Positions 12,297 to 42,506 are shown, counted from the stretch's first letter. The stretch is 64,000 bases of DNA from Candidatus Binatia bacterium (GCA_963666515.2 OY762897.2:3776001-3840000); one strand, 5' to 3'. Notes: a model not told the origin generated them from the sequence alone. Translations and numbers: made by a program.

Positions 12297-13403
12297 CTAG
12301 ATGCGCATCGGCATGACCACGTAAAGCAGGCTGTCGTCGCCGCCGCGCTTCAGCAGGGTGGGACTCTGGTCGTCCTTGAGCGCCATGCCGATCTGGTCCT
12401 CGCGTTCCAGGACGCCGAGAATCTCCAGCAGGTACTGGGCGTTGTAGCCGATGGCGAGCTGCTCGCCCTTGTACTCCACCTCCAGTTCCTCCGCCGCCTC
12501 TCCAAGGTCCGGGTTGTTGGCCGAGATGGCCATGCTTCCATCCTGCAACTCCACCCTGACGCCCCGGTAACGGTCGCTCGACAACAGTGATACCCGCCGC
12601 AACGCCCGGTAAAGGCTGTGTTGCGCCACGGTGGCCTCGCCGGTGTTGTCGCTCGGTATGACCTTGTCATAGTCCGGGAACTCGCCGTCGATCAACCGGA
12701 TCGACATTTCCACGTCCCCGGTCCAGACGAACACCATGTTGCCGCTGAAGCCCAGGGACACCGCCTCGTCCGCCGGGTCTTCCAGCAATCTGCGGAGTTC
12801 AGCCAGCCCCTTCCGCGGTACGATCACGCCCTTTTCGAGACCGAACGGGCCGATGTCCCGCTGTACCAGGGACAGCCTGTGACCGTCGGTGGTGACCATC
12901 CGCACGGATGACTCTCCCGACTCGTGCAGCAGCGCGCCGTTGAGGTTGGAGCGGGTCTCGTCCGAGGAGATGGAGAAGATCGTCTTGTCGATCATCTCCT
13001 TCAGGACCTGGGCCGGACACTCCTTCCGGTCGCTCTCCGCGTTTTCGGCGAACACCGGAAACTCCTGGGCGTCGAGGCCCACCATCTTGAACACGGACTT
13101 GCCGCTCTGAATCTCCACCCGGTCGTTGTCCAGGCGCTTCAGCTCGATCATTTCCTCCGACAGCTCGCGCACGATCTCGTAGAGCTTCCGGGCGTCCACG
13201 GTGACGCGGCCGGAGGTGACGATCTCGCCGCCGAGACTCGCTCGAACTCCCACTTCGAGGTCGGTCGCGGTGACGCGGACACGGTTCGCGTGGGTTTCGA
13301 TCAGGACGTTGGCAAGGATCGGCATGGTATTGCGCCGTTCCACCGTGCCCTGGATCCTGGACAACGCGTTCAGGAAGTCTTCGCGTCTGGTTCTGATCTC
13401 CAT
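12297..13403 (-). CDS. dnaN: DNA polymerase III beta clamp
   Basis: RNTMPILANVL, ATDLEV, TTDGHRL, RLIDGEFPDY, YVVMPMRI. Confidence 0.97.
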   Translation of the reverse strand: MEIRTRREDFLNALSRIQGTVERRNTMPILANVLIETHANRVRVTATDLEVGVRASLGGEIVTSGRVTVDARKLYEIVRELSEEMIELKRLDNDRVEIQSGKSVFKMVGLDAQEFPVFAENAESDRKECPAQVLKEMIDKTIFSISSDETRSNLNGALLHESGESSVRMVTTDGHRLSLVQRDIGPFGLEKGVIVPRKGLAELRRLLEDPADEAVSLGFSGNMVFVWTGDVEMSIRLIDGEFPDYDKVIPSDNTGEATVAQHSLYRALRRVSLLSSDRYRGVRVELQDGSMAISANNPDLGEAAEELEVEYKGEQLAIGYNAQYLLEILGVLEREDQIGMALKDDQSPTLLKRGGDDSLLYVVMPMRI

Positions 13404-13644: not shown

Positions 13645-14955
13645 TCAGTTCTTGAGTTGGCGAACGATGCGGTCCATCGTGGCCTTGACGTAGGGGTCCG
13701 TCAAGGTCTTCTTCTCGATGGACTTCGATGCATGGATGACCGTGGAGTGGTCCCGGCCGCCGAACTCGGCGCCGATGGCCGGAAACGACGTGGATGTGTA
13801 CTTTCGGCACAGGTACATGGCCATCTGGCGCGCGAGGGCGACGTCCTTGGTGCGGCGCTTGGACTTGAGGTCGCTGATCTTGAGGTCGAAGTGATCGCAG
13901 ATCGCCTTCTGGATATTGCGCACGGTGACCTGTTTCTCGTTGTCCTTGAGGGTGTCGCGCAGCACCTCGGTGGCGAGGTCGATGGTCATGTCGGCCTTGG
14001 TCAGGGAGGCGAAAGCGCCGAGGCGGGTCAGCGAGCCCTCCAGTTCGCGCACGTTCGACCAGATGTTGGTGGCGAGGAAGTTGGCGACGTCCTGCGGCAG
14101 GTCGATTTCCTCCTCCTCGGCCTTCTTCATGAGAATGGCAATGCGGGTCTCGATGTCCGGCGGCTGGATGTCGGCGGTCAGGCCCCACTCGAAGCGGTTC
14201 CGCAGCCGGTCCTCCAGGTTGGGGATTTCCTTGGGGAAACGGTCTGACGTGATGATGATCTGCTTGTGGTTCTCGTACAGCGAGTTGAACGTGTGAAAGA
14301 ACTCCTCCTGGGTCCGCTCCTTGCCGGCGATGAACTGGATGTCGTCCAGGATCAGCACGTCGATGTTGCGGAAATGGTGCTTGAACTCGTTCATGCGGTC
14401 GCGGCGCAACGACCCGATGAGCTGGTTCATGAACGATTCGAAGGTGATGTACACCACCTTCTGATGCGGGTTCTGCTGGAGCAGCCGGTGCCCTACGGCG
14501 TTCACCAGATGGGTCTTGCCCAAGCCGACGCCGCCGTAGATGAACAGCGGGTTGTAGTGGTCCGCCGGCTTGCTGGCGACCGCCAGACAGGCGGCGTGGG
14601 CGAACTGGTTGCTCGCGCCGACGACGAAGTTCTCGAACGTGTAACGCGAGATCAGGGTCGATTCCGGTTCCCGTTTTCGCGGCTCGGGGCGTGCGCCCTC
14701 GCTCGCGTTCCGGGAGGCGGGGTTGACCAATATGGTGACGCGGACCGGCTTGTCGTGGTGACGGGAAACCTCGTCCTGGATGCACTCCAGGTAGTTATCG
14801 TTGAGCCAGTCGCGAAAGAGCGTGCTGGGCACCTCGATGGTGGCCGCTCCCTGCCTGACCTCGCTAACTCTCAGAGGTTTGATCCATGTCTGGAAATTGT
14901 GTAAGCCGATCCTTTCCTTGAGGCGATCCTGTATCTCACGCGGAAGCGGTTTCAT
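13645..14955 (-). CDS. dnaA: Chromosomal replication initiator DnaA
   Basis: YTFENFVVG, YNPLFIYGGVGLGKTHL, LILDDIQF, QEEFFHTFN, NVRELEG, GGRDHSTV; ATG 14955 preferred over TTG 15027. Confidence 0.97.
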   Translation of the reverse strand: MKPLPREIQDRLKERIGLHNFQTWIKPLRVSEVRQGAATIEVPSTLFRDWLNDNYLECIQDEVSRHHDKPVRVTILVNPASRNASEGARPEPRKREPESTLISRYTFENFVVGASNQFAHAACLAVASKPADHYNPLFIYGGVGLGKTHLVNAVGHRLLQQNPHQKVVYITFESFMNQLIGSLRRDRMNEFKHHFRNIDVLILDDIQFIAGKERTQEEFFHTFNSLYENHKQIIITSDRFPKEIPNLEDRLRNRFEWGLTADIQPPDIETRIAILMKKAEEEEIDLPQDVANFLATNIWSNVRELEGSLTRLGAFASLTKADMTIDLATEVLRDTLKDNEKQVTVRNIQKAICDHFDLKISDLKSKRRTKDVALARQMAMYLCRKYTSTSFPAIGAEFGGRDHSTVIHASKSIEKKTLTDPYVKATMDRIVRQLKN

Positions 14956-14995
14956 CTTTACATGACCCTCGTTCGAGCGCTTGCGCGGGCGTAGG

Positions 14996-15027
14996 TTATC
15001 AACAAAATTGTCAACAGTTGTGGACAA
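14996..15027. promoter_or_regulatory. Cluster of three DnaA boxes upstream of dnaA
   Basis: TTATCAACA (14996-15004), TTGTCAACA (15008-15016), TGTGGACAA (15019-15027) versus consensus TTATCCACA. Confidence 0.85.
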
Positions 15028-17177: not shown

Positions 17178-17879
17178 ATGGGACATCATCCGTTTACCTG
17201 GTATGACCTGCTGCCCGCGGCCTTGCAAGGCGTGTTGCCGCTGCAGATCTTCTTCTCGGTGGTCAGCATGGTGCTGCTGGTCTGTCTGGCGCTGGGCGTC
17301 CGGCGCCGTCTGCGGGACACCCACAACGCGGTGATCCCCAGCGACCGCATCACGCTGGTGAACGTCTTCGAGCTGCTGATCGAGTTCGTCATGGGCTTGA
17401 GCGACAGCATTATCGGCCACAAGGGGCGGCAGTACCTCCCGCTCTACGGGACGTTCTTCATCTTCATCCTGCTGTCCAACTTCATCGGGCTGGTGCCGGG
17501 CTTCTCGCCCCCCACCAGCAATCTCAACATCACCCTGGGGATGGGGCTGATCTCGTTCGGCGCCTATCACTACTTCGGCATCCGGGAGCACGGCGGCGGC
17601 TACCTCAAGCAGTTCATGGGGCCGTTCCTGGTGATCGCTCCGCTGTTCTTCCTGATCGAGGTGTTCTCGCACATGTTCCGGCCGCTCACGCTGGGCCTGC
17701 GGCTGGCCTTCAACATGTTCGCCGACCACCTGGTGGTGGAAATCTTCACCGGCCTGACCTACGTGGTGATCCCGGTGCTGTTCTACCTCCTGGGGGCGCT
17801 GGTCTCGGTGATCCAGGCGTTCGTTTTCACCCTGTTGAGCATGATCTATGCATCCCTGGCGTTGAGCCATGATCATTGA
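17178..17879 (+). CDS. atpB: F0 ATP synthase subunit a
   Basis: SNFIGLVPG, PTSNLN, RPLTLGLRLAFNMFADH, IQAFVFTLL. Confidence 0.96.
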   Translation: MGHHPFTWYDLLPAALQGVLPLQIFFSVVSMVLLVCLALGVRRRLRDTHNAVIPSDRITLVNVFELLIEFVMGLSDSIIGHKGRQYLPLYGTFFIFILLSNFIGLVPGFSPPTSNLNITLGMGLISFGAYHYFGIREHGGGYLKQFMGPFLVIAPLFFLIEVFSHMFRPLTLGLRLAFNMFADHLVVEIFTGLTYVVIPVLFYLLGALVSVIQAFVFTLLSMIYASLALSHDH

Positions 17880-17954
17880 GCGCCGCGGCGGCATGCGGAG
17901 AGGATGATGAGGAGAGGCGGGCCGGCATCCGTAGCGCCGGAAAGGAGGAAACAG

Positions 17955-18281
17955 ATGACGCAACTCACAGCCTTCGTACTCACGGGACTCTTCGTGCTGA
18001 TCCTGTCGGGCGTGGCCGCTGCCGCGGACGCCGCTGCCGGCGGCTCGGCGAGCATGGTCCCGGGCATCGTTGCACTGGGCGCCGGCCTCGGCATCGCCAT
18101 CGCCGCGTTCGGCTGCGCGCTCGCGCAAGGCCGGGTGGGCGGCGCGGCCATGGAAAGCATCGGCCGCAACCCCAACTCCGCGGACAAGATCTTCACCCCG
18201 TTGATCCTGTCCCTGGCCCTCATCGAAGCGCTGGGCATCTACGCCCTGATCATCGCCTTCATCCTCGCGGGCAAGGTGTAG
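17955..18281 (+). CDS. atpE: F0 ATP synthase subunit c with N-terminal signal-like extension
   Basis: RBS AAGGAGG; GAGLGIAIAA, IGRNP, LALIEAL. Confidence 0.95.
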   Translation: MTQLTAFVLTGLFVLILSGVAAAADAAAGGSASMVPGIVALGAGLGIAIAAFGCALAQGRVGGAAMESIGRNPNSADKIFTPLILSLALIEALGIYALIIAFILAGKV

Positions 18282-18823: not shown

Positions 18824-18905
18824 CGCGGTGACCTTTCGTTCAGCCCCGTCAGTATTCGAGGGGGCACTATACCATGCAGCCTCTTCGTATCGCGGCGCCC
18901 TGCGT

Positions 18906-19005
18906 CGTCATTCCGGCGAAAGCCGGAATCCAGGACGGGCGGGGCGGGGAATCACTCTCGTCTGCCCCTCCCCACCCCTGGATTCCGGCTTTCGCCGGAA
19001 TGACG
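18906..19005. repeat. Palindromic repeat family A, two-arm element (100 bp)
   Basis: CGTCATTCCGGCGAAAGCCGGAATCCAG...CTGGATTCCGGCTTTCGCCGGAATGACG. Confidence 0.92.
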
Positions 19006-19860
19006 ATTTCGGAGGTCATCGCCTATCTCGGACGACGTTTTGGCACCGCCTGGAAAGCGGGAATCCAGGGGAGGAGGGGGCGCAAGCAGCACCCGCGTCC
19101 CCGTTCCCGCGCCGAGGCCCGCCTGGGCGCTGCCGTTGCAGCGGGATATCTCCAGCAGTCCCCAGCTATTGACCAAGGCTAGGTAGTTGCCGGCGCCGGC
19201 CGAGGCGTAGTTGTCCGACAGGCCCCGGATGACGCTGTCGCCGACCCGCACCGAAACGCTCTCCGTGTCGAGCCGGCCCAGGTGCTCGCGGCGGATGTTG
19301 GTGGTCAGGTTGCCGAAGCCGTCGACATAGATCACCTGGCCGGCGATGCCGCCCCCGTCTCGTATCTCCGGGTCGGGAACATGCAGGCTCTCGAAGCTTT
19401 CCACGGTCTCGCCCAGCTTCTCCAGCCGAACACCCGCCGACAGGTGGGCGGCCACGGGTGCGAAGACGTCTCGGCCGTGGAACGTCGTGCTGGTGGGCTG
19501 GAGGTGATACTCGGGTTTGGAAAGGTGGATGATGCGGCGCAGGCGTTGCCGCCCGGCCGCGAGGCTCAGGAGCCCGTTGTCCGGGCCCACGTAGCAGGCC
19601 CGGTCGGTTTCGAGCAGGATGGGCCGCCGGTCGCCGCCGACGCCGGGATCCACCACCGCCACGTGGACCACGCCCTCCGGAAAGAAGTCCACGGCGGACG
19701 CCAGCGCCAGCGCGCCTCCGGTGACGTCCTGAGGGGCGACGCCGTGGGTCAGGTCGATGAGGGTGGCGCCAGGGTCGATGGCGGCCACCACCCCCTTCAT
19801 GATGCCGACGAAGGGGTCGCGGTAGCCGAAGTCCGTGGTCAGGGTGATGATTCTTGACAC
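18952..19860 (-). CDS. SAM hydrolase/SAM-dependent halogenase family (DUF62) protein; C-terminus runs into repeat DNA
   Basis: ITLTTDFG, VVDPGVG, GPDNG, TFHGRDVFAP, YVDGFGN, NSWGLLEI. Confidence 0.9.
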   Translation of the reverse strand: MSRIITLTTDFGYRDPFVGIMKGVVAAIDPGATLIDLTHGVAPQDVTGGALALASAVDFFPEGVVHVAVVDPGVGGDRRPILLETDRACYVGPDNGLLSLAAGRQRLRRIIHLSKPEYHLQPTSTTFHGRDVFAPVAAHLSAGVRLEKLGETVESFESLHVPDPEIRDGGGIAGQVIYVDGFGNLTTNIRREHLGRLDTESVSVRVGDSVIRGLSDNYASAGAGNYLALVNSWGLLEISRCNGSAQAGLGAGTGTRVLLAPPPPLDSRFPGGAKTSSEIGDDLRNRHSGESRNPGVGRGRRE

Positions 19861-19977: not shown

Positions 19978-20664
19978 ATGATCGAGCTCTACACCAGCGC
20001 CACCCCCAACGGCCAGAAGATCCACATCATGCTGGAGGAGACCGGCCTCCCTTACCGTCTTCACTGGGTCGATCTCAGGAAGGGCGAGCAGTTCGATCCG
20101 GAGTTCCTCAAGATCAGCCCCAACAACAAGATCCCCGTCATCTTCGACCGGGACGGCCCCGGAGGGGAGCCTATCTCGGTGTTCGAGTCCGGCGCCATCC
20201 TGGTCTACCTAGCCGAAAAGACCGGGAAGTTCCTGCCCACCGAAACCCGTGCCCGCACCCGTGTGCTGGAGTGGCTGATGTTCCAGGTGGGCGGCGTCGG
20301 TCCCATGCTCGGCCAGGCGCACCACTTCCGCGCCTACGCGCGCGAGAAGATCCCCTACGCCATCGAGCGCTACACCAGCGAGGGGGCGCGCATCTACCGG
20401 GTGCTGGACAAGCGGCTGTCCGAGAGCGAGTACCTGGCGGGAGACTACTCCATCGCCGACATGGCGGTGTTCCCGTGGATCCGTCTGCACGAGCGGCAGG
20501 GCCAGGACATGGCCGACCACCCCCATCTGAGCCGGTGGTTCAACACCATTGCCGCGCGGCCCGCAGTGGCCAGGGACATGGAGAAGACCCGGGACGTGGT
20601 GGGTGCCATCACCGACGAGATGTGGGACAATCTCTGGGGCAGGAAGCAGTTCGAGCGGCGCTGA
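19978..20664 (+). CDS. Glutathione S-transferase, YfcG/YghU-like
   Basis: TPNG, ISPNNKIP, FESGAIL, GPMLGQAHHF, YSIADMA. Confidence 0.92.
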   Translation: MIELYTSATPNGQKIHIMLEETGLPYRLHWVDLRKGEQFDPEFLKISPNNKIPVIFDRDGPGGEPISVFESGAILVYLAEKTGKFLPTETRARTRVLEWLMFQVGGVGPMLGQAHHFRAYAREKIPYAIERYTSEGARIYRVLDKRLSESEYLAGDYSIADMAVFPWIRLHERQGQDMADHPHLSRWFNTIAARPAVARDMEKTRDVVGAITDEMWDNLWGRKQFERR

Positions 20665-20678
20665 CCGGGGGCCGCGGC

Positions 20679-21116
20679 CTACGAGCTGCTGTCCATGGGG
20701 TAGCCTTTCTCGGTCCAGCCGGGAAGCCCCTCGTACAACACCCTCATGTTGCGGTGGCCCTGCTTGTGGAGAATCTCGTAAGCCAACCTGGACAGGTGGC
20801 GAGGGCACTGTCAATAGAGGACGACGAGACCTTCTTTCGGCACGAGGTCCTTGCCCCGGAAAAAGGCGCCCAAGGGTATGGAGAGGGCGCCCTTGATGTG
20901 CCCCGCGTCATAGCTGCGGCGCTGCCGGACGTCCACCAGGGTGATCGGCTTGCGGTCGAGGATGTGCTGGACCAGCTCTTCCACCCGGATATACCGGACC
21001 GCGATCTTGTCCGAGGTCTCTACTTTGGCGTACTCGGGGTATATCCCCGGGTCGCCCCAGGCAGGCGCCGCCGCCATCAACAGCAGCGCCGTCAGTCCAA
21101 CCGCAAGGCGTCGCAT
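20679..21116 (-). CDS. Exported rhodanese-domain selenoprotein (UxC motif), 145 aa with Sec read-through at 20811-20813
   Basis: Signal peptide; LVDVR, GHIKGALSIP, VVLY-[TGA]-QCPRHLSRLAYEILHKQGHRNMRVLYEGLPGWTEKGYPMDSSS*. The frame after the TGA completes the rhodanese fold and fills the gap to the convergent GST gene. Confidence 0.85.
20775..20803 (-). promoter_or_regulatory. Putative bacterial SECIS element
   Basis: mRNA GCCACCU-GUCC-AGGU(U)GGC hairpin starting 10 nt after the UGA; apical loop begins GU; bulged U. Confidence 0.7.
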
Positions 21117-22012
21117 CAGCCGCCCTCGCTTTCCGGGGTCTTGACGCCCGCGAACCTAGCGCGGTCCGCCAGCATCGCCGGCGTCAGCACGCCGGTGTGG
21201 CGCCGGCCGTTGATGATCCACGTGGGATAGGAACGGACGCCGGCCGCCAGACACTTGGACGCCACCGGTCCGCTGCGTCCCGCGGGACTGCATTCGACGT
21301 AGGGAATGCGGTGGGCGGACGTCCCGAACAGTTCCTTCTGGCTCTCGCAGGCCGGACACCAGAACGCCCCGTACATCTTGACGCCGGTCTCTTCCAGGTG
21401 GGTGGCCAGCCCCTTCATCCAGGGGTCCTCCTTGCCCGAGGCCCCCACGGAGACGCCCGAATAGAAGACCAGGTGCAGCGCCACCACCGCGACCCCGGCC
21501 GCCAGGAAGCTCGATCCCAGCCAGGGCTGCCACGCAAGCCGGCGGCTCACCTGCGGGATCTGGAACAGGGTGACGACGAAGATGGCCGCAAGAAGCCCGA
21601 GGGACGTCAGGCAGTACGGACAGGCCGCCTCCAGCCGGAACACCGAAATGGCCGTGAGATACACGCTGTAGGCGACGCCGAACAGCGAGACCGCGGCGGT
21701 CAGTTTCCAGCGCTGGCTACGGCGTTTGCCGAAGGCCGCGGCTGCAAGCACCGCGTAGATGAAGAAACCCCAGAGCGACGTGGGCAGGCCCAGCAGCACC
21801 GACCAGCGGCTGTGCAGCACGATGTCGCAGTCGGCTCCCGCCTCGCAAAAGGCCGCCTTCTCCCCCAACCACGCGGTGCCGGTCAGATACCCCGCCAGCG
21901 CCAGCCCCACCACCGCCAGAGCCAGAACCGGCCAGTTCGGACTCGCGGACCCGGCCGCCGCCGGCTGCTGCCGGGGTCCTCGCCCGCCTTTCTTCCTCGA
22001 TGCCTTGGCCAT
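21116..22012 (-). CDS. Vitamin K epoxide reductase (VKOR)-thioredoxin-like fusion (cyanobacterial/LTO1 type)
   Basis: CEAGADCDIVLHSRWS, CPYC in TM domain; MYGAFWCPAC, YVECSPAG, C...SYPTWIING. Confidence 0.93.
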   Translation of the reverse strand: MAKASRKKGGRGPRQQPAAAGSASPNWPVLALAVVGLALAGYLTGTAWLGEKAAFCEAGADCDIVLHSRWSVLLGLPTSLWGFFIYAVLAAAAFGKRRSQRWKLTAAVSLFGVAYSVYLTAISVFRLEAACPYCLTSLGLLAAIFVVTLFQIPQVSRRLAWQPWLGSSFLAAGVAVVALHLVFYSGVSVGASGKEDPWMKGLATHLEETGVKMYGAFWCPACESQKELFGTSAHRIPYVECSPAGRSGPVASKCLAAGVRSYPTWIINGRRHTGVLTPAMLADRARFAGVKTPESEGG

Positions 22013-22110
22013 GATCGCTCCTCCGGGACCTTCGCCCGGTGCCTGACACTACGTCGAAATTTAACAGACCCGCCGGTTCCAAGACAAGAAACCGGCCCTT
22101 TCGAACCGGC

Positions 22111-22749
22111 CTACCCCGTTCCCGTCAGCAAGCTTCGGGCGTTCCGGCGCAGCCGTTCCAACGCACGCGGGTTGCGGCTTTCGTAGTAGCCCCGGATGAT
22201 GCCGTCGCGGTCCACCAGCACGAACCGGGTGCTGTGGAAGACTACGGGATCGTGCGTGTGGCCGTCCACCGGGGCGGCGCTCAGGCGGAACCCGTCCTGC
22301 ACGATGCGGCGGATCTCCCCCAACTCACCGGTGAGGAACAGCCAGCGCTCGGGGTCCGCGCCGTACCGTTCGGCGTATCGCGACAACAACGCGGGCGTGT
22401 CCGTGAGCGGATCGACGGAGATGGAGACGGACCGCAGGTCGCCGTAGCCCTTCAGGTCCGTCCGCAGCGCCGCCATGGCGCGGCTCTGGAGCGGGCAGGT
22501 GTCCCGGCACTGGGTGTAGATGAAGTCCGCGATCCAGACCCGGCCGCGCAGGTCGCCGGCGGACACGGGCCTGCCGCTTCGCTCCACCAGCGAGAAGTCC
22601 GGCGCCGGACCGTACCGCGCGAGCTGCTCCAGGACGGGCTGGCGCGGAGCCGCAGGGGGGGTACGGAGTTGTTGGATGACAAGGCTGACGAGGACGATGG
22701 ACAAGACCGTCCCGACGGTCACCTGGAGCATGAAACGCCGCTGTGTCAT
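22111..22749 (-). CDS. SCO1/SenC family copper chaperone
   Basis: APDFSLVERSG, FIYTQCRDTCP (CxxxC), SISVDP, VFHSTRFVLVD. Confidence 0.93.
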   Translation of the reverse strand: MTQRRFMLQVTVGTVLSIVLVSLVIQQLRTPPAAPRQPVLEQLARYGPAPDFSLVERSGRPVSAGDLRGRVWIADFIYTQCRDTCPLQSRAMAALRTDLKGYGDLRSVSISVDPLTDTPALLSRYAERYGADPERWLFLTGELGEIRRIVQDGFRLSAAPVDGHTHDPVVFHSTRFVLVDRDGIIRGYYESRNPRALERLRRNARSLLTGTG

Positions 22750-22867
22750 GCTCCGGCCTCGCCCGGCCTATCCCGGGGGAATCTTCTGCAGCAGTCGGTC
22801 ATTTTCGTAAAGCTCGTACCGCGTATAAATTCCCATTAAAGCATGATCGCGGGGCAAGTGCAGGACA

Positions 22868-23683
22868 CTAGCGGTTCCGCCGCAGCCACCGGCGGCCACC
22901 AACCAGGAAGAAGACCAGCGTGAAGGTGAGGACGATCATGGCGCCGGAGGAGATGTCGATGAAGTAGCTGAGGTACATGCCGGCCGCCGCGCACACGGCG
23001 CCGATGATCGGGGTGATGACCAGCAGGGTCTGGAACCGTTGTGTCAGGTAGCGGCCTATGACCGGAGGGATGACCACGGCGGCGGACACGAGGGTGACGC
23101 CGAGGATGCGGGTGGACGCCACGATGGTGACCGCCAGCACCAGGATGAAGATCAGCTCGGTACGGCCGGTGGAGATGCCGTACACCGGCGCCACCTCCGG
23201 GTCGAAGGTGGAGAACAGGAGCTGGCGGCGGATGACGATCATGACGAGTACGACGGCGGCGGCGGTGGCCGCGATGACCCGGAGATCCACCGGCGTGATG
23301 CCCAGCAGGTTGCCGAAGAGCGCGGCCTCGAAGTCCAGCGTGAACTTCCGGTAGGTGGAGACCACCGCCACGCCCAGGGCGAAGCTCGCGGTCGTCACCA
23401 CGCCGATGGCGGCGTCGGCGCCCACCAGCCGGCGGTGGCTGATGAGGTGGATCAGCACCGCGCTCACCAGCGCCCACACGCCGGCGCCGATGAAGAAGTG
23501 GACGCCGACGATGGTGCTCAGCACCGCCCCGCCGAAGAGGGCGTGGGCCAGCCCGTGGCCGATATAGCTCATGCGCCGGAGCACCACGTAGACGCCGACG
23601 TAGCCGCACACCGCGCCGACGATGACCGAGGCGATCATGCCGTTGCGGAAGAACTCGTAGGCGAAGGGTTCAAGCGGACCCAT
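22868..23683 (-). CDS. Mn/Zn/Fe ABC transporter permease (ABC-3 family)
   Basis: VVLRRMSYIGHGLAH, DAAIG, LFGNLLGI, TFDPEVA, DISSGAMIVL. Confidence 0.92.
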   Translation of the reverse strand: MGPLEPFAYEFFRNGMIASVIVGAVCGYVGVYVVLRRMSYIGHGLAHALFGGAVLSTIVGVHFFIGAGVWALVSAVLIHLISHRRLVGADAAIGVVTTASFALGVAVVSTYRKFTLDFEAALFGNLLGITPVDLRVIAATAAAVVLVMIVIRRQLLFSTFDPEVAPVYGISTGRTELIFILVLAVTIVASTRILGVTLVSAAVVIPPVIGRYLTQRFQTLLVITPIIGAVCAAAGMYLSYFIDISSGAMIVLTFTLVFFLVGGRRWLRRNR

Positions 23684-23690
23684 GGAGGCG

Positions 23691-24563
23691 TCATCCGCCG
23701 TTGGGCGAGTGCGGCCGTTCGCCCACCATGATCATGTCGCCGTGCTGGAAGACCACCATCTCCCCCTTGTAGGTCTCTCCCAGCACTTCGGTGGTGAACA
23801 CCTGCTGGGGGTCGCCTTCGGCGATCACGCGCCGGTTCAGGCACACCACCCACGGCAGGTGCGCGGCCACCCAGTTGAGGTCGTGGCTGGTGATGAGGAT
23901 GGCGACGCCCGAGTGGTTGATCTCGTGAAGGAAATGGACCACCTCGTCGCGGGAGCGGATGTCGAGCCCGGAGGTGGGCTCGTCGAGCAGGATCAGCTCC
24001 GGCTCTCCCAGCAGCGCCCGGGCGATGAACGCGGCCTGCTGCTGTCCTCCGGACAGCTCCCGGATCTGGCGGTCCCGCAGCTCATGCAGGTTGAGCCGCT
24101 CCATGATCTCGTGGGCGCGGTCGCGGTCCTCCGGAGCGGTGCGCCGGAACCACCGGTGGCGCCGGGACAGGCCCAGCAGCACCACCTCCTCCACGGTGAT
24201 GGGAAAGCTCAGGTCGATCTGCTCAAGCTGCGGCACGTAGCCCACGGACCCGAGAGACCCGCCGCCAGCCGGCGCACCGTGGACGGTCACCCGCCCTTCC
24301 CTGGGCCGGATGTGCCCCAGGATGGTGCGCAGCAGCGTGGTCTTCCCCCCGCCGTTGGGTCCCACCACCGCCAAGAACTGCGCCGGCCAGAGCTTCAGGT
24401 TGACCCCGGCGATGCCCAGGGTCTGCCGGTAGCCGCTGGACACGTCCGTCAGCTCCACGATGGGCCGCCCCTGCTCGCTCCACTCCCGCCCGCCCGCATG
24501 CGGGTGCCCGTGCAGCCTGCCGTGGACGTGGTGGACCCGGTCGGTGTGCTTCTCGGAGGTCAC
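23691..24563 (-). CDS. Mn/Zn ABC transporter ATP-binding protein with His-rich N-terminus
   Basis: GPNGGGKTT, GYVPQ, LSGGQ, LLDEPTSGLD, SHDL; start uncertain. Confidence 0.92.
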   Translation of the reverse strand: MTSEKHTDRVHHVHGRLHGHPHAGGREWSEQGRPIVELTDVSSGYRQTLGIAGVNLKLWPAQFLAVVGPNGGGKTTLLRTILGHIRPREGRVTVHGAPAGGGSLGSVGYVPQLEQIDLSFPITVEEVVLLGLSRRHRWFRRTAPEDRDRAHEIMERLNLHELRDRQIRELSGGQQQAAFIARALLGEPELILLDEPTSGLDIRSRDEVVHFLHEINHSGVAILITSHDLNWVAAHLPWVVCLNRRVIAEGDPQQVFTTEVLGETYKGEMVVFQHGDMIMVGERPHSPNGG

Positions 24564-24823
24564 GGCAGAGAGGGTCGACCAGCCAGAAACTGGCGGGTCG
24601 TGAGCCCGCCATGGTGGCAGGGATGATATTTTGATCCGAGCATGGACATCCGTCTATCAGGTGGCGCTAGCGTAGACAATTCCGCTGAACCTGCCGAATG
24701 CTGAGCTATCAAAAAAACCTTGGCAAAGCCTCGACCTCGGACGTTCGGTTGTCATTGACGCCGTTGCATTTACTGCACTTATTTCACAGAATGGTCGTGA
24801 AGGCAGTTTAAGGGGAGGTATCT

Positions 24824-25288
24824 ATGAATACGACAACCCATCGTCAACTCCCGCCCACGCCACGGGATGCCGCGATCGCCCGTAGTTCCCGCCAGATTCT
24901 TTCCCACTACGCCGGGATTCAGCGACCCTTGAGGCTCCGCGTGAGAGACCGCGGGCAGGAGGAGCCAATCGAGCTTCCAGCGGGTGCAGTCAGGTTGCTC
25001 ATGCACGTGCTGGAGGCCATGGCCGCGGGCCGGGGCGTAACGCTTGTTCCCGAGAGTGCAGAACTGACTACGGTCCAGGCAGCCGAGGTGTTGAACGTTT
25101 CCCGCCCTTTCCTGATCAAGCTTCTGGACGAGAATGCCATTCCGCACCGGAAGGTCGGCAAGCACCGCCGGGTTCGCATGGAGGACGTCATGGCGTACAA
25201 GGAGGCGATTGACCGGGAACGCGAGCAGGTTCTCGACCAGTTGACGCGGGAGGCCCAAGAACAGGGCTTGGGGTACCGTGTTCCGTGA
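24824..25288 (+). CDS. Excisionase-like HTH antitoxin
   Basis: ELTTVQAAEVLNVSRPFLIKLLD...HRKVGKHRRV; coupled to a PIN gene. Confidence 0.88.
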   Translation: MNTTTHRQLPPTPRDAAIARSSRQILSHYAGIQRPLRLRVRDRGQEEPIELPAGAVRLLMHVLEAMAAGRGVTLVPESAELTTVQAAEVLNVSRPFLIKLLDENAIPHRKVGKHRRVRMEDVMAYKEAIDREREQVLDQLTREAQEQGLGYRVP

Positions 25289-25854
25289 CCCGTTACACGG
25301 CTCTTCTCGACGCCAACGTTCTCTACTCCGCGCCGATACGCGATATTTTTTTGCAGTTGGCCGTGAGCGATGTCTTCCGGGTGAGATGGACGGCGGATAT
25401 CCATCGCGAGTGGATTGATGCGCTCCTCCGCAACGAGCCTCATCGGAGTCGTACCGTCCTCGAACGCACGCGATCTCTCGTGGACCGCGCCACCCGCGAT
25501 TGCCTGATTACCGGATATGAGGCCCTGATCCCGACTCTCGACCTTCCCGACCCCGACGATCGCCACATTCTTGCGGCAGCGATCGCTGGTCGTTGCGACG
25601 CGATTGTCACCGCGAACCTTCAGGACTTCCCGAACGTCGTGGTCAATCCATATGGGATCGAAGTTCAACACCCGGATGAATTCCTGTTCAATCACCTCGA
25701 ACTGGCACCGGGGATTTTCTGCGAGGCCGTCCGCAAGGTACGCGCACGGCTGAAGGCGCCACCCTTAACCGTTGAAGAGTATCTCGCCAATTTGTCCAAG
25801 CAGGGGCTGGTCGCGACCGCCACGGAGCTGGAACGGTTTGCGGTGTCGATCTGA
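25285..25854 (+). CDS. PIN-domain protein (VapC-like toxin)
   Basis: ALLDANVLY, LPDPDDRHILAAAI, IVTANLQDFP, HPDEFL. Confidence 0.9.
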   Translation: MTRYTALLDANVLYSAPIRDIFLQLAVSDVFRVRWTADIHREWIDALLRNEPHRSRTVLERTRSLVDRATRDCLITGYEALIPTLDLPDPDDRHILAAAIAGRCDAIVTANLQDFPNVVVNPYGIEVQHPDEFLFNHLELAPGIFCEAVRKVRARLKAPPLTVEEYLANLSKQGLVATATELERFAVSI

Positions 25855-27053: not shown

Positions 27054-28244
27054 CTACCGATAGCGCGCGTGATGGCCCGCCACCGGGGCCGGGTCCACGG
27101 CCTTCAGCGCGTCGGCCGAGCCGCCCAGCGCGGTCACGATGGTGCGGATGTTTTCGAGCATCATGCCGGTGTACGAGTGGATCGGGTCGCCGGACTCCCC
27201 GGGGAGGTCGTCGTCCCGCAGCTTGTCGATGAATACCGTCCCGGCTTCACGGGCGATCTGCGCGAGCACAGGGCTGGGAAACAACTCGGAGCCGAACACC
27301 GCCGGCACCCGCGCGCGGCGCAACTGGTCGATGAGCCGCGCCACCTCTCTGGGGCTCGGCTCGGAGAAGCTGGAGGGTTGCACGGCACCGATGACGGAGA
27401 AGCCGTAACGCTTGGCGAAGTAGGGCCACGAGTCGTGATAGGTGAGGAGGCGCCGGTTCTCCGGCGGCACCGTGGCCACGGCCGCGGCAATGGCCCTGTC
27501 CAGCGCTCCGAGCTGCTTCAGGTAGCGCTCCGTGTTGTCCCCGTACGCGGCCCGGCCCTCGGGGTCCGCCGCGGCCAGGGCATCACGCACCAGGCGGGCG
27601 TAGTTCATCACGAGCACCGGGTCGGGCCACAGGTGCGGGTTGGGGTGCCCCCGGTCCCTGGGGAAGCTGAAGTCGAAGACGTAGTCCGCTTCGCTGAGGG
27701 TGCGGTCGGCGAGCAGTAGAATCGGCGTCTCCGGCCGCTTGTTGGCGCGCGCCAGCTTCAGCGTCGGGATCTCCAGGTAGAGGCCGTTCATGATGATGAG
27801 GTCGGCCCGCGCCATGGTTCTGGCGTCCGACGGGACCGGCCGGAAGGTGTGGGAGTTCACCCCTTCCGGCACCATGCCCGTGACCCGCGCCCGGTCCCCG
27901 GCCACGTTCTCCACCATGCTGGTGATCGGCGCCACGGTGGTGACCACGCGTGGGGAGGCGGCTTGGAGTCGGCCGGGAAGCGCCAGCATCATCGCGAGCA
28001 GCAACGCCAGGACCACGCCGGTCTCCGCGATCCCGACGTACCGGCCGGTCTTTCCCGCGCCACGGCTCGGCTTCCCCGACACTGTGCGTCCGTCATTCCG
28101 GCGAAAGCCGGAATCCAGAGGGGGAGGAGGCGGAGCATTCGCAACCCCGGCCCCCCTCTGGATTCCGGCTTTCGCCGGAATGACGGACACGGACATCGGC
28201 GCACGGGTTGTGTGGCAGGGACGGTTTTGTGGCCTGAGTATCAT
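27054..28244 (-). CDS. Mn/Zn ABC transporter substrate-binding protein (TroA/ZnuA cluster)
   Basis: GVNSHTF, NPHLWPDP, TYHDSWPYF, EPSPRE, LRDDDLP; start ambiguous (ATG 28244 includes an in-frame repeat; alternative GTG 28082). Confidence 0.9.
   Translation of the reverse strand: MILRPQNRPCHTTRAPMSVSVIPAKAGIQRGAGVANAPPPPPLDSGFRRNDGRTVSGKPSRGAGKTGRYVGIAETGVVLALLLAMMLALPGRLQAASPRVVTTVAPITSMVENVAGDRARVTGMVPEGVNSHTFRPVPSDARTMARADLIIMNGLYLEIPTLKLARANKRPETPILLLADRTLSEADYVFDFSFPRDRGHPNPHLWPDPVLVMNYARLVRDALAAADPEGRAAYGDNTERYLKQLGALDRAIAAAVATVPPENRRLLTYHDSWPYFAKRYGFSVIGAVQPSSFSEPSPREVARLIDQLRRARVPAVFGSELFPSPVLAQIAREAGTVFIDKLRDDDLPGESGDPIHSYTGMMLENIRTIVTALGGSADALKAVDPAPVAGHHARYR
28091..28185. repeat. 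Palindromic repeat family A, two-arm element, in frame with the SBP N-terminus
   Basis: Translates as VIPAKAGIQ...LDSGFRRND. Confidence 0.92.
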
Positions 28245-33332: not shown

Positions 33333-34025
33333 ATGTGGGGTGGGACCAACGTGGTCGTAAAGCGATCAGAAGTTTCTTCAGCGACGGAAGACTATCTCAA
33401 GGCCATCTACAGTCTGGCCGAGGAGAACGACCAAGTGATCGCGGCGCGGGTGGCGGAGGACATCGGCGTGACGCCCTCTACCATGTTCAGTGCCCTGCGG
33501 CGGCTGGAGAAGGAAGAGTTCGTGCGGGTGGAGCGCCGCAAGAACATCTACCTGACGTCCAAGGGCCGCGAGGTGGCGGAGGCCATCCTGCGCCGGCACT
33601 TTCTCACGGAGCGGCTGCTGACGGACCTCCTGGGCCTGGACTGGGTCACCGCCCACCAGGAAGCACACCACCTGGAGCACGCCATCTCGCCGGTGGTGGA
33701 GGAGCGCCTCGCCGCCATCCTCGACAATCCGTCCACCTGCCCCCACGGCAACCCCATTCCCGTCAAGGGGGAGCCGTCCCCACGCCGCGAGTGGATCCCC
33801 CTGAATACCGCGGCAGCCGGCACGGGAGTCATCTTCCGCTGCATCACCGAGACCGGCGAGCGCGACGCCGTGCTGCTGTCGTTCCTCTACGACCACGAGG
33901 TCCGTCCCGGCACCAACATCGACATTCGCGACGTTTCGCCGTCCCTGGGCACCATCAGTCTCAAGGTGGGAGAACACGAGGTCGTGCTGGGCCTCGAAGC
34001 CGCCAGGAAAATCTACGTGCAGTGA
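33333..34025 (+). CDS. DtxR/MntR/IdeR family metal-dependent repressor with FeoA-like C-terminal domain
   Basis: EDYLKAIY, RRHFLTERLL, EAHHLEH, CPHGNPIP. Confidence 0.93.
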   Translation: MWGGTNVVVKRSEVSSATEDYLKAIYSLAEENDQVIAARVAEDIGVTPSTMFSALRRLEKEEFVRVERRKNIYLTSKGREVAEAILRRHFLTERLLTDLLGLDWVTAHQEAHHLEHAISPVVEERLAAILDNPSTCPHGNPIPVKGEPSPRREWIPLNTAAAGTGVIFRCITETGERDAVLLSFLYDHEVRPGTNIDIRDVSPSLGTISLKVGEHEVVLGLEAARKIYVQ

Positions 34026-34105
34026 CCGGAGCGGCGGAGCGCATCCATGAACGCCCGGACCGACACACGCAGTCGAGCCGGTGCGGCACTGCTCGCAGCA
34101 GCCGC

Positions 34106-34978
34106 CTACCACGGCGTGGCTGCGGCAGCCGTGGCCACGCCGGCGGCGACTACCGCCATCCAGCACAGCCGCCTGAACCCGATCCGATCCCCCAGCCAGA
34201 TACGTGCGGCCACCGCGGTGACGGCGGCGAAGCAGGAGAAACCGATGGCCGCGCCGACCCGTCCGCCGCCGGCAGAGCCGGTCAGGAACAGGCCCAGGGC
34301 CCCCGTTTCCAGGATCGCCTGCAACAAGACGAGGGGCCACGTTGTCCCGGACGGCCAGGCCAGCGGCCGGCGCTGCCGTTGGAGCGCCATGAAGCCCAGT
34401 GCGCCGACCAGGGCGAAGGCGCGGTTCAGGTACACCGCCGGAACCGTGCCGAGCGCCGCGCCGGCCTCCTGAGCGAGGAACATGCGTAGCGCCACCGACA
34501 CCGCGGCGCCGAGGCCCAGGAGCGCGGTCACCCGCAACGAGGCGCGGTCGTAGCGCTCCTTCCCCGGCCGTTCGGGCCGGGCCAGCATCGCCACGCCGCC
34601 GAAGACCGTCAACGCCGCGACCCCGTGCAGCCAGTGATACGGATGGCCGGCCAGCACGTTCAGCGCCACGAGCATCACCGTGAAGCTCGACGTGGCGGGG
34701 GAGGCCACCGTCACCGGCCCCCGCACCAGCGCGCGGAAAAGCAGAGCCAGCGCCGCGACGTTCAGCAGGCCGGACACAACCGAGGCGCCCCAGCCCCACG
34801 CGTTCCACGCCGGCCAGCCGCCGCTCGCCGCGAACCAGACCGTCATGACGGCGAACGGAGGGATCATGATGAGCGCGATGAGCACGGACAGGGAGACGCG
34901 GCTCGCCGTCACCCGCGCCACGCAATCGGAAACGCCGATCAGGCCGGCGCCGCACAACCCCCACACCAGTCCGCTCAT
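34106..34978 (-). CDS. DMT/EamA family transporter
   Basis: ~10 TM segments, GVSD, RGPVTVASP, LGDRI. Confidence 0.85.
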   Translation of the reverse strand: MSGLVWGLCGAGLIGVSDCVARVTASRVSLSVLIALIMIPPFAVMTVWFAASGGWPAWNAWGWGASVVSGLLNVAALALLFRALVRGPVTVASPATSSFTVMLVALNVLAGHPYHWLHGVAALTVFGGVAMLARPERPGKERYDRASLRVTALLGLGAAVSVALRMFLAQEAGAALGTVPAVYLNRAFALVGALGFMALQRQRRPLAWPSGTTWPLVLLQAILETGALGLFLTGSAGGGRVGAAIGFSCFAAVTAVAARIWLGDRIGFRRLCWMAVVAAGVATAAAATPW

Positions 34979-35192
34979 GACATGTCTCCGTCTCCGCCTC
35001 TTTCCGTTGCCTTCGCCTCTCCACGTTCCTTTCAGAGTCTCTCAGCGGTCGCAACCGGCAGGCGGAGCGGACTCGAAATGTCCCCGATACTGTGTTACGG
35101 CTCAGACAGGAAGCGCCCGTCCCGCGATGGAACCCCGAAGCTTGAATGGACGCGGTACAATGCCCCCGGAACGGGCGAGAAGGGAGAACGGA

Positions 35193-36626
35193 ATGCAGCC
35201 GGTAACCGACATGCGGAGCTTCATCGAGCGACTGGACGCCATGGGCGAGGTCAGGCGCATCGAGGGGGCGGACCTGGACACCGAGGTGGGGGCGCTCACC
35301 GAGCACATGGGCGACATCGAGTCGCAGGCGCTGCTGTTCGACGGCTTCGCGGGGTTCCCCAAGGGCTTCCGCATCGTCTCCAACCTGTTCCGCACCTGCT
35401 CGCGCACCGCGGTGGCCATGGGCGTGCCCACGGACGTGAAGGGGGTGGACTTCCTCCACGCCTGGCGCAAGCGCTCGCTGGAGTTCCAGCCGCTTCCCTA
35501 CGAGCAGGTGGAAGGCGGGCCGGTGTTCGACAACCAGATGGAAGAGGACGAAGTCGACCTGACCCGGTTCCCGACCCCGCTGTGGCACGACCTCGACGGC
35601 GGACGGTACATCGGCACGGGATGCGGCGTGATCACCAAGGATCCCGAGTCGGGCGGCATCAACATCGGCACCTACCGGGTGATGATCCAGGAGAAGAACA
35701 AGGTCTCGGTCAAGATGAACAAGGGCAAGCACGGGCGGCTGGCCATGGAGCGGGCCCACGCCCGGGGCGAGGCGCTGCCCGTGGCCATCACCCTGGGACA
35801 GGAGCCCAGCGTCATGCTGTCGTCGCAGATGCCGCTGCCGCCGTCGGTGAACGAGTACGAATTCGCCGGCTGGATGCAGGGGAGCCCCATCCCGGTGGTG
35901 CGGGGCGCCGTCACCGGCCTGCCCATCCCCGCCAACGGCGAGGTGGTGCTGGAAGGCGAAATCCCGCCGCTGCCGCCCGAGCAGCTCCCCAAGGAAGGAC
36001 CCTTCGGCGAGTGGCCGGGCTACTACACCGAGGCCACCGAGGGCGACGTGCCGCTCATGACCGTCAAGCGCGTCTACTACCGCAACGACCCCATCATCCT
36101 GGGCGCGCCGCCGGTGCGGCCGCCCAACAGCTACCTGCCGATTCCGCTGGGCGCCATCACGCTCTGGGAACAGCTCGAGAAGGCCGGCATCCCCGACGTG
36201 AAGGGCGTCTGGGGCTTCGTCTACGGCGGCCAGCCCGGCCCGTTCACGGTCATCTCCATCAAGCAGCGCTACACCGGCCACGCCAAGCAGGCGCTGCTGG
36301 TGGCCGCCGGCGCCCGCGCCGGCGCCTACGGCGGAAAGATGGTGGTGGTGGTGGACGACGACGTCGACATCACCAATCCCGGCGAGGTCATCTGGGCCCT
36401 GTCCACCCGCTGCGACCCGCGCGAGGGCATCGACATCGTGAAGAACGTGTGGGCCTCGGTGTGCGAGCCGGTCATCTCTCCCATGGACCGGGACACCAAG
36501 GGCTACGTCACCGACCGCGTGCTCATCGACGCCTGCCGGCCGTACCAGTGGATCGACCGCTTCCCGCCGGTGAACGCGTTCGAGCCGCAGTACAAGGACA
36601 AGGTGGCGAAAAAGTGGGGCGTATGA
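35193..36626 (+). CDS. UbiD family (prFMN-dependent) decarboxylase
   Basis: Start MQPVTDMRSFI; DGGRYIGT, NIGTYR, EGPFGEWPGYY, VVVDDDVD, WALSTRCDP, IDACRPY. Confidence 0.93.
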   Translation: MQPVTDMRSFIERLDAMGEVRRIEGADLDTEVGALTEHMGDIESQALLFDGFAGFPKGFRIVSNLFRTCSRTAVAMGVPTDVKGVDFLHAWRKRSLEFQPLPYEQVEGGPVFDNQMEEDEVDLTRFPTPLWHDLDGGRYIGTGCGVITKDPESGGINIGTYRVMIQEKNKVSVKMNKGKHGRLAMERAHARGEALPVAITLGQEPSVMLSSQMPLPPSVNEYEFAGWMQGSPIPVVRGAVTGLPIPANGEVVLEGEIPPLPPEQLPKEGPFGEWPGYYTEATEGDVPLMTVKRVYYRNDPIILGAPPVRPPNSYLPIPLGAITLWEQLEKAGIPDVKGVWGFVYGGQPGPFTVISIKQRYTGHAKQALLVAAGARAGAYGGKMVVVVDDDVDITNPGEVIWALSTRCDPREGIDIVKNVWASVCEPVISPMDRDTKGYVTDRVLIDACRPYQWIDRFPPVNAFEPQYKDKVAKKWGV

Positions 36627-36752
36627 GCCGTAGTACTTGAAGGACCGGATGATTCGCTCGGGAACAATCAACACATGGTCCACACCGCGCCCTGGGCGAC
36701 CGCCCAAGGCGATCCGTTACACCAGAGTGCTTCAAGCCATGTCGTCACCTCA

Positions 36753-37733
36753 TCATTCAACCGTCCTGCGCATCAGGACCAGGTTGTCGAGGACGAGATT
36801 GGACGACCAGATGAACTGTGCGTCGGCCGCCGGGTCGTCGAACACGTCGTGGAAGTTCATGAACGCGGGCTTGTTGTCGACACCGACGGTGTCATTGGAA
36901 AAGACGGTGGCGAGCGGCCAGCCGCTGTCGTCGAAATCGGGCGCAAACCAGTTGCCGGGCACCGGCCAGTGGGCAGCGGAAAACGTGCTTCCGTCCTGAA
37001 CGCCGGCCGTCGCGCACTGGGAGCTGTCGCGAACCGGGCCTTCGAGCTTCAAGCACGATCGATCATTGAGCGGCGCGGTGTAAAACGTCTGCGCGCGCCA
37101 GGATTTATCCGTAATGGCAACCGTGCGCCCCTTTTCATCCTTGATGACCGCAACAAACCCGGCATCACCCGGATGGTAGGCGACGCGCCTGTTCCGTTCT
37201 GAACCAAGCCCCAGGTTTTCTTCCCAGTCGACACCCATCACGGCGATCGTGAAGGGCCGGTTCGCCTTGAAACGAACCACGCTGGAGTTGAACGGCGTGA
37301 AGGGAATCGCGTCAACGCCGAGCAACTTGCCGTTGACGTAGAACTCGAAATAGTTGTCGGCGAAAATATATGCCGCGAAGGTTTCCTCACCACCGGCGTC
37401 GATCACCGGTACTTTCTTGTGATCGAGGTCGGAGAGCTGACGCAGTCGAACGCCGCTGCATTGGTTGTAGAGGTCAGCGGCCTTCATTGCCGTCTGAAAG
37501 TGCGTGTCTGCGGGCACGACCCACCGCCTGCCATCGTCCGACCTGATCACACCGACGGGACTGACGCGCGCGCGAGCCTCGTGACACACGAACAGGCCGG
37601 GATTGGTGGTCTTCGCCGGCCCCGTCGTGAACGAGGGTGTATCCTGCGCTTGCACACCCCCGGAAAGAGCGATTGTCATTGCGAACGCGAGAGCCGCGGC
37701 TTCGACAGATTTCCAGTTGGAAAAGATAATCAT
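36753..37733 (-). CDS. Secreted conserved hypothetical protein
   Basis: Signal peptide ending GVQA; FADNYFEFYVNG, DWEENLGLG, GDAGFVA, FIWSSNLVLDN; function not recognised. Confidence 0.75.
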   Translation of the reverse strand: MIIFSNWKSVEAAALAFAMTIALSGGVQAQDTPSFTTGPAKTTNPGLFVCHEARARVSPVGVIRSDDGRRWVVPADTHFQTAMKAADLYNQCSGVRLRQLSDLDHKKVPVIDAGGEETFAAYIFADNYFEFYVNGKLLGVDAIPFTPFNSSVVRFKANRPFTIAVMGVDWEENLGLGSERNRRVAYHPGDAGFVAVIKDEKGRTVAITDKSWRAQTFYTAPLNDRSCLKLEGPVRDSSQCATAGVQDGSTFSAAHWPVPGNWFAPDFDDSGWPLATVFSNDTVGVDNKPAFMNFHDVFDDPAADAQFIWSSNLVLDNLVLMRRTVE

Positions 37734-40265: not shown

Positions 40266-40283
40266 CGGAATTTCTCGTGGTGG

Positions 40284-40394: not shown

Positions 40395-40405
40395 GAGGCT
40401 GAGCC

Positions 40406-42505: not shown

Positions 42506-42506
42506 A

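Follow-up and report, generated by a model that had tools for sequence, protein, structure and literature searches.

In a 64,000-nucleotide stretch of the genome of a Candidatus Binatia bacterium (GCA_963666515.2, OY762897.2:3776001-3840000; hereafter the window), we find a gene cluster in which an SCO copper chaperone and a membrane-bound fusion of VKOR to thioredoxin (VKOR-Trx) are followed by a small rhodanese that is predicted to be exported and to carry selenocysteine (Sec) in its active-site loop. Rhodanese selenoproteins and VKOR-Trx fusions are each already known. The cluster that joins them here is conserved in the Binatia and suggests that a redox step based on selenium, so far undescribed, takes place outside the cytoplasm. 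A preliminary description of this DNA had listed a run of five co-oriented genes: the ATPase and permease of a metal ABC transporter, SCO, VKOR-Trx and the rhodanese. All five lie on the minus strand, and each matches a Pfam family. The three redox genes are those of SCO1/SenC, a copper chaperone or thiol-disulfide oxidoreductase (22111-22749; SCO1-SenC, PF02630, 93.8 bits), of VKOR-Trx, with 298 residues and five predicted transmembrane helices (21116-22012; VKOR, PF07884, 87.9 bits), and of the putative single-domain rhodanese selenoprotein, with 145 residues plus the stop (20679-21116).

The open reading frame of the rhodanese meets a TGA after 101 codons (20811-21116). Past this TGA (codon 102, 20811-20813, minus strand), the frame continues for 43 further codons to a TAG at 20679-20681, and reading through gives a full rhodanese domain protein of 145 residues. 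Sec-decoding machinery in the genome that holds the window (4.67 Mb, 98% complete; G000) was judged by tRNA-Sec and SelB, and both are present, tRNA-Sec at C1:1984970 and SelB with 370.9 bits against a curated cut-off of 242. We searched 40 relatives in six frames, 24 of the same genus and 16 of the same order, and recovered a full-length rhodanese ortholog in 21 of them (13/24 in the genus, 8/16 in the order), each with exactly one in-frame TGA. No close cysteine form was found by this search among the 40 relatives; the best stop-free rhodanese matches, ten of them at E 5e-17 to 1e-12, have 34-40% identity and are encoded elsewhere in the genomes. When 185,579 species, each represented by a single genome, were scanned by pattern, 54 loci were returned, which partly share genomes with the search of the 40 relatives, so the two counts are not independent. 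The TGA occupies the same codon in 53 of the 54 loci, 52 of them reading LY*xCPxH and one FY*ACPHH. In the sole locus without it (L067, 7001-7417) the loop reads YGNRPRH, and Sec and the cysteine at +2 are both lost, as would be expected if the two residues operate as a pair. Downstream of the TGA (codons +18 to +39, 54 sequences), the first, second and third codon positions have pairwise diversities of 0.215, 0.085 and 0.441, a pattern that indicates a translated frame under purifying selection.

Synonymous sites are frozen 10-30 nucleotides past the UGA. Synonymous entropy at codons +5 to +8 (H-L-A-S) is 0.13, 0.39, 0 and 0 bits, compared with 1.5-2.0 bits at four- and six-fold sites elsewhere. 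The frozen region coincides with a candidate bacterial selenocysteine insertion sequence (SECIS) hairpin on the minus strand at 20782-20800, which starts 10 nucleotides past the UGA and has a bulged U and a GU in its loop. In the window and a few close relatives the hairpin is GCCACCU-GUCC-AGG(U)UGGC, a form that comes from coupled changes altering two amino acids; most orthologs have GGCCA-GUU-UGGCC in the same place and a different register. Both hairpins have G-U in the loop and stand at a distance from the UGA that fits the rules for bacterial SECIS elements. Speaking against such an element, RNAalifold on 48 sequences found neither compensatory pairs nor covariation in the hairpin, where six pairs are invariant or nearly so. 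No SECIS family of Rfam was matched between 20500 and 21200, where all hits were at chance level, and the 91-nucleotide stretch folds no better than its shuffles (z 0.05). In the absence of compensatory pairs and of an Rfam match, support for the hairpin comes from synonymous-site constraint and not from covariation.

Together, tRNA-Sec and SelB, the conservation of the codon in 53 of 54 loci, purifying selection past the TGA and the frozen synonymous sites over the hairpin identify the TGA, as far as comparative sequence evidence can, as a genuine Sec codon. The same evidence bears on the alternative that the TGA is a true stop and that the gene encodes a truncated rhodanese of 101 residues without an active site. 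This is how databases annotate it, and all 40 database homologs that we retrieved are 87-115 residues long and end at the TGA. Such a product would lack the catalytic loop and half the fold, however, and a true stop is at odds with 43 codons held in frame behind it in 53 of 54 loci with the pattern of purifying selection, with the Sec machinery in the genome and with the frozen synonymous sites of the hairpin. We regard a true stop as hardly credible. Elsewhere in the same genome (C1:~1718400-1718950) lies a second selenoprotein gene, for a peroxiredoxin of the Bcp/PrxQ type; its in-frame TGA falls within TPG-U-TKE, which corresponds to a known TxxU selenoprotein type.

Read through, the protein matches the Pfam rhodanese domain (PF00581) over residues 46-136 with 55.4 bits against a gathering threshold of 22.2, and its active-site loop is Y101-U102-Q-C104-P-R-H107. 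In a profile of 16 orthologs, the U102 column aligns with the catalytic cysteine of solved rhodaneses, including 6MXV and 3TP9. An AlphaFold model of moderate confidence (predicted local distance difference test, pLDDT, 73.7) has a strand at 97-101, a loop at 102-107 that starts at U102 and a helix at 108-118. Residues Y101, U102, C104, P105 and H107 are invariant in the aligned orthologs, together with the usual rhodanese motifs (DVR, GHI-GA, EG-GW). A CX5R phosphatase or arsenate reductase of the Cdc25/Acr2 type was considered and rejected, as position +6 is Leu. The best NCBIfam match, NF041203 (rhodanese_LYCAU), reaches 47.6 bits against a cut-off of 115, and the order here is U-x-C where that model has C-x-U. 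The model for TsoB, a rhodanese/DsbD fusion (NF045694), reaches 31.4 bits against 805, and the rhodanese here is a single domain of 145 residues. Judged by these profiles, this rhodanese, with Sec at the position of the catalytic cysteine, stands outside every NCBIfam model.

The N-terminus of the rhodanese consists of a hydrophobic segment followed by A-x-G/S/A and then D/N/E-P, a layout that is conserved across 16 aligned orthologs. In the window, the predicted signal peptide of the general secretory (Sec) type, read from the sequence and the ortholog alignment, is MRRLAVGLTALLLMAAAPAWG (21054-21116, minus strand), with DPG following after cleavage. From these features we predict that the rhodanese is exported by a Sec-type signal peptide; the Tat route was rejected because the RR pair is not conserved among orthologs. 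The preliminary description had called the rhodanese an exported UxC selenoprotein, and the retention of the TGA in all but one of the 54 loci and the conserved signal peptide bear this out.

The translation of the neighbouring VKOR-Trx gene contains the motifs KMYGAFWCPAC, PYVEC and SYPTW, and that of SCO contains a CxxxC and a His, all as previously quoted. Residues 31-282 of VKOR-Trx align with Synechococcus VKORC1/thioredoxin (PDB 4NV2, 3KP9) at E 3e-46, which agrees with the cyanobacterial type first assigned to it, and the separate Trx-domain entry 3KP8 is also matched. Its cysteines form a loop pair (C56/C62), a C131-P-Y-C134 pair, the Trx site W-C219-P-A-C222 and a structural pair (C241/C254), and all eight are invariant in 24 homologs. 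The Trx active site is CPAC in the genus of the window and a DsbA-like CPHC in most relatives. By homology, the protein is a Synechococcus-type fusion of the oxidase type. Hydropathy and the positive-inside rule predict five helices, with the N-terminus and the loops at 91-103 and 153-164 inside and C56/C62, C131/C134 and the Trx domain outside. SCO has C81-RDT-C85-P and a later His in VVFHSTRF, one N-terminal transmembrane helix (residues 7-25) and its domain outside. Given these topologies and the signal peptide of the rhodanese, all three redox proteins are predicted to face the periplasm, so that the rhodanese would lie on the same side of the membrane as the domains of SCO and Trx. No fusion to a rhodanese or to SCO was found in the best 120 of 672 VKOR-Trx homologs, all of which are 287-303 residues long and carry PF07884 only. 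A complex prediction for the SCO and Trx domains from single sequences scored 0.00 and is evidence neither for nor against an interaction.

The order SCO, VKOR-Trx, Sec-rhodanese is kept across Candidatus Binatia, with a few loci under other labels. Our neighbourhood survey shows that the linkage seen in the window is a conserved one: VKOR-Trx immediately precedes the rhodanese in 49 of the 51 loci with at least 1 kb of upstream sequence, and SCO is at most 2 kb upstream in 42 of the 45 loci with enough sequence. A set of 20 loci also follows this pattern. Among the 49 VKOR-Trx neighbours, 47 are near full length and in one segment, one is a remnant (L055) and one is fragmented (L093), its gene being broken into four frame-shifted pieces. 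In the window, the stop codon of VKOR-Trx (21118-21116) overlaps the ATG of the rhodanese (21116-21114) in the TGATG at 21114-21118, as originally noted, and 11 of 14 same-genus loci, the window counted, have the same overlap.

Our preferred reading, which we hold tentatively as quite possible rather than probable, is that the rhodanese cycles as a U-x-C selenenylsulfide relay to VKOR-Trx and is an accessory client of a general periplasmic oxidase. The rhodanese would alternate between a selenol/thiol form and an intramolecular U-x-C selenenylsulfide, and the Trx domain of the fusion would take two electrons from it and hand them through the VKOR cysteines to quinone. The rhodanese, oxidised or reduced, may then have a sulfur or thiol substrate in the periplasm that is connected with the function of copper chaperones: possibly the cysteine pairs of SCO or Cox11, or else sulfane sulfur or sulfide, which would poison copper sites. 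Within this scheme, VKOR-Trx, whose role is assigned by homology, would be the only quinone-linked disulfide generator of the genome, and the Sec-rhodanese would be one client or relay among its substrates rather than the sole one. The preliminary description had gone further and proposed VKOR-Trx as the dedicated oxidant of the rhodanese. This claim holds only in part: VKOR-Trx is the only VKOR in the genome, no DsbB was found in this 98% complete assembly, and across relatives either protein occurs without the other. With no second enzyme of this sort found beside it, and with VKOR-Trx persisting in many genomes where the rhodanese is gone, the role of accessory client or relay suits the rhodanese better.

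Several observations weigh even against this looser partnership. VKOR-Trx is present in 37 of the 41 genomes searched, 17 of which (17/37) have no rhodanese ortholog, and the rhodanese is present in 22 of the 41. Twelve VKOR-Trx loci without the rhodanese keep the same synteny, two of them with remnants that reveal its loss (L098, L102). One genus (g7) retains SCO and the rhodanese with VKOR reduced to a decayed Trx-like remnant (L034). In L059 and L061 the surroundings of the rhodanese are unrelated, and neither partner occurs within 7 kb of it. There is also a terminator-like hairpin between SCO and VKOR-Trx, a single hit where 2.3 are expected by chance, so that SCO may or may not form a separate transcription unit; the hairpin (22089-22112, minus strand) begins at the SCO stop codon, in the 98-nucleotide gap between the two genes.

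As an alternative, VKOR-Trx could be a general equivalent of DsbA/DsbB and the Sec-rhodanese an independent, PspE-like sulfurtransferase boosted by Sec. The latter would transport or dispose of sulfane sulfur, sulfide or cyanide without VKOR-Trx and be adjacent to it only through a shared envelope regulon. The single VKOR and the lack of a detected DsbB in the genome fit this explanation, as do the wider occurrence of VKOR-Trx (37/41 genomes against 22/41 for the rhodanese), the occurrence of the rhodanese with no VKOR (g7) or on its own (L059, L061), the retention of the canonical rhodanese motifs, and a DsbA-like Thioredoxin_4 protein encoded separately in the genome, the one such protein that we found. 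It fits poorly with the placement of the rhodanese, which directly follows VKOR-Trx in 49 of 51 loci, from families whose proteins share ~40% identity, and with the overlap of the two genes in the genus. In addition, the cysteine at +2 is invariant in the aligned orthologs, and L067 has lost U and C together, both of which favour redox cycling of a dithiol type over simple transport of persulfide. We consider independence of the two neighbours somewhat unlikely.

The operon of g7 (L034/L035), which consists of a TlpA-like thioredoxin with a CxxC site (CYTC), SCO and the Sec-rhodanese in this order, raises a further explanation, in which electrons flow the opposite way. A TlpA-like Sec-rhodanese would reduce the CxxxC of SCO, or else Cox11 or CoxB, before metallation, drawing electrons from CcdA/DsbD-type proteins instead of giving them to VKOR. 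The genome encodes one CcdA/DsbD homolog, the rhodanese/DsbD fusion selenoprotein TsoB is a known family, and there is a precedent in TlpA, which reduces ScoI and CoxB in Bradyrhizobium (PMC6696091). On the other side, the usual neighbour of the rhodanese is an oxidase-type VKOR-Trx with CPHC, and no DsbD/CcdA gene was found in the cluster. A reducing role of this kind seems distinctly unlikely to us, and the relay to VKOR-Trx remains the reading that we prefer.

Losses of the rhodanese recur within the genus of the window. Loss of the Sec trait was rejected as their cause, since SelB is present in all of the same-genus genomes (24/24). In five same-genus relatives (L098, L096, L102, L103, L105), the rhodanese and a Cox11-domain gene of the same cluster erode independently, with the rhodanese cleanly lost or left as short remnants and with large internal parts of the Cox11-domain gene missing from at least four genomes. 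That each gene has been lost repeatedly and independently within one genus indicates that both are accessory. A complementary pattern of loss between them was rejected, as all four combinations of presence and absence occur in the genus.

The Cox11-domain gene was missing from the earlier account of the cluster. In relatives, the gene between the permease and SCO encodes a protein of 480-512 residues with a CtaG/Cox11 domain that retains the CFCF copper motif; in one relative this protein also has DUF4382. More distant loci add a second SCO and DUF4382, and one (L062) adds two Cox11-domain genes. The Cox11 family occurs in 28 of the 41 genomes, ~2 kb upstream of VKOR-Trx, including genomes without the rhodanese. 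No match to Cox11 (PF04442) was found anywhere in the genome of the window. A scar remains at 22771-22818 (minus strand), where tblastn with a Cox11-domain protein (P0162) finds 12 of 16 residues identical at the exact syntenic position, with a genome-wide E of only 0.054. The alignment and its position indicate that the Cox11-domain gene is deleted in this genome and that its final 16 codons survive. The operon of an aa3-type oxidase (COX2, COX1, CtaA, COX3, COX4) lies at C1:603-610 kb and includes neither SCO nor Cox11. The only other SCO1-SenC gene found in the genome is at 39567-40265 of the window; a third search hit was rejected as SCO and is the Bcp-type peroxiredoxin selenoprotein. Judged from its gene content, the wider cluster is a copper-chaperone cluster.

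Such a setting raises the alternative that U-x-C-P-x-H is itself a copper site, which would bind Cu(I) in the manner of the CxC of Cox11 and the CxxxC and His of SCO. The rhodanese would then carry or buffer copper in the periplasm and pass it on to SCO and Cox11, and VKOR-Trx would do no more than set the redox state of the rhodanese. Sec, Cys and His are all invariant, the cluster holds SCO, a Cox11-domain protein with CFCF, a second SCO and DUF4382, and the rhodanese stays beside SCO even where VKOR is lost. Cox11 binds copper through a CysXCys motif (PMC6696091), and a UxC motif is given for the SO_0444 Cu/Zn efflux selenoprotein (PMC13188914). The independent loss of the rhodanese and Cox11-domain genes, in all four combinations within the genus, argues against such a site. 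So may the geometry of the loop, in that the side chains of rhodanese loops usually point away from the catalytic atom; the model on which the loop can be viewed here is of moderate confidence (pLDDT 73.7). A selenium copper site is in our estimation unlikely.

The preliminary description placed the cluster behind a metal ABC transporter. This is correct for the genus of the window and for some families, namely family f2 (L099-L101) and two loci of f3 (L057, L070), and does not extend to most of the distant loci, from which the transporter is absent. In the window, the ATPase (23691-24563, minus strand; Pfam ABC_tran, 104.8 bits) is MntA/AztA-like in NCBIfam at scores below the cut-offs, and the ABC-3 family permease (22868-23683, minus strand; Pfam, 204.4 bits) reaches 173.5 bits with AztB, for which the cut-off is 280. 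The ZnuA-family substrate-binding protein of the same transporter is encoded at 27054-28244 (minus strand; Pfam ZnuA, 231.6 bits). The subunits of this putative cluster A-I metal importer match Pfam families, and every NCBIfam equivalog (ZnuABC/MntABC/AztABC) stays under its cut-off. An HTH/PIN toxin-antitoxin pair and an Amidohydro_2 gene lie between the ZnuA-family gene and the ATPase, and same-genus relatives have the gene order substrate-binding protein, amidohydrolase, ATPase, permease. The toxin-antitoxin-like pair (HTH_17 / PIN_3, plus strand, 24824-25854) is inserted between the amidohydrolase and the ATPase; some same-genus relatives have it and others are without it.

Perfect palindromic repeats built on CGTCATTCCGGCGAAAGCCGGAATCCAG occur at 18905-19006 and 28088-28188, with arms of 30 and 37 nucleotides that are 100% complementary; translated in several frames, they give the recurring peptides IPAKAGIQ and FRRKPESR. 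The second repeat lies inside the 5' end of the ZnuA-family open reading frame, whose start is therefore probably overcalled. A second metal-homeostasis block spans 33333-47364 of the window. It comprises a DtxR-family repressor with a FeoA domain (33333-34025), a UbiD-family protein (34680-36626), an Amidohydro_3 protein (37938-39536), the second SCO1/SenC (39567-40265), an ArsP_1 permease fused to an SPFH domain (40406-42505), two further SPFH proteins, and a second set of ZnuA, ABC ATPase and ABC-3 permease (44423-47364). Elsewhere, dnaN (12297-13403) and dnaA (13645-15027) adjoin an aminotransferase and the a and c subunits of ATP synthase (17178-18281), and the window probably sits at the replication origin region. 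The stretch 20600-24600 was also detected in DNA runs, four of them of one organism and study (0.82-0.97 of sampled words) and one labelled sponge metagenome (0.36 of sampled words).

The Synechococcus VKOR-Trx (PDB 3KP9, 4NV2/4NV5/4NV6) shares the architecture, the eight cysteines, the five transmembrane helices and the outside location of Trx with the fusion described here, which differs in lying in a copper-chaperone operon with a selenoprotein next to it and in having CPAC rather than CPHC in this genus. The Synechococcus fusion functionally equals DsbB plus DsbA (PMC5403849). Table passages of a 2026 review on the selenoproteomes of prokaryotes (PMC13188914), taken with an earlier list (PMC9312934), give five forms of rhodanese selenoprotein, with UxxS, UxxG, CxU (NF041203 LYCAU), UxxG and UxxxxU (TsoB) and none with UxC. 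The protein here has in common with these forms the rhodanese fold and a Sec in or beside the catalytic loop. It differs in U-x-C-P-x-H, with Sec first and Cys at +2, and in its signal peptide, and it is set apart by motif and hidden Markov model only. As in TsoB, a Sec-rhodanese would be coupled to a membrane thiol-disulfide electron carrier, which is DsbD in TsoB and an oxidase-type VKOR here. PspE of E. coli, a rhodanese with a single Cys, resembles it as a small, exported, single-domain periplasmic rhodanese (PDB 2JTQ, matched at E 4e-8) and is unlike it in having Cys in place of Sec, no resolving Cys at +2 and no linkage to VKOR or SCO. PspE and DsbC can partly replace DsbA/DsbB in disulfide formation (PMC5403849).

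Two further comparisons concern copper. In the TlpA-ScoI-CoxB system (PMC6696091), the protein that acts on the SCO copper chaperone is likewise periplasmic, tethered to the membrane and of the thioredoxin fold. The reducing pathway supplies TlpA, which serves as a reductant, whereas the Trx domain here is fused to a quinone-linked oxidase, and no selenoprotein is involved in the TlpA system. The CxC site of Cox11/CtaG offers a chalcogen pair with the same two-residue spacing (C-F-C, against U-x-C here), also periplasmic and in the same cluster; its fold is different, and the U-x-C of the rhodanese is a candidate copper site. In literature searches and the table passages of PMC13188914, we found no report of a Sec-rhodanese with a U-x-C loop, of its periplasmic export or of a fixed place behind VKOR-Trx and SCO.

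A bolder proposition, which we rate as improbable, is that cuproenzyme assembly includes a component based on selenium, namely the Sec-rhodanese. Its U-x-C-P-x-H loop would handle Cu(I) directly, or else the protein would form, together with VKOR-Trx, a periplasmic sulfide/persulfide:quinone oxidoreductase that protects copper chaperones and aa3 oxidase from sulfide. In either version, if true, no earlier selenoprotein would have been tied to copper delivery by SCO/Cox11, and no earlier natural client would have coupled a VKOR to selenol chemistry. The family is annotated as a fragment of ~100 residues in every entry that we retrieved and is therefore invisible to current selenoproteome surveys; with a curated model of the U-x-C rhodanese, annotations would be corrected by the dozen in Binatia. 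The cluster makes thiol-selenol exchange with a quinone-linked oxidase testable in a natural case, and it gives a lead on the maturation of heme-copper oxidases in uncultured Binatia.

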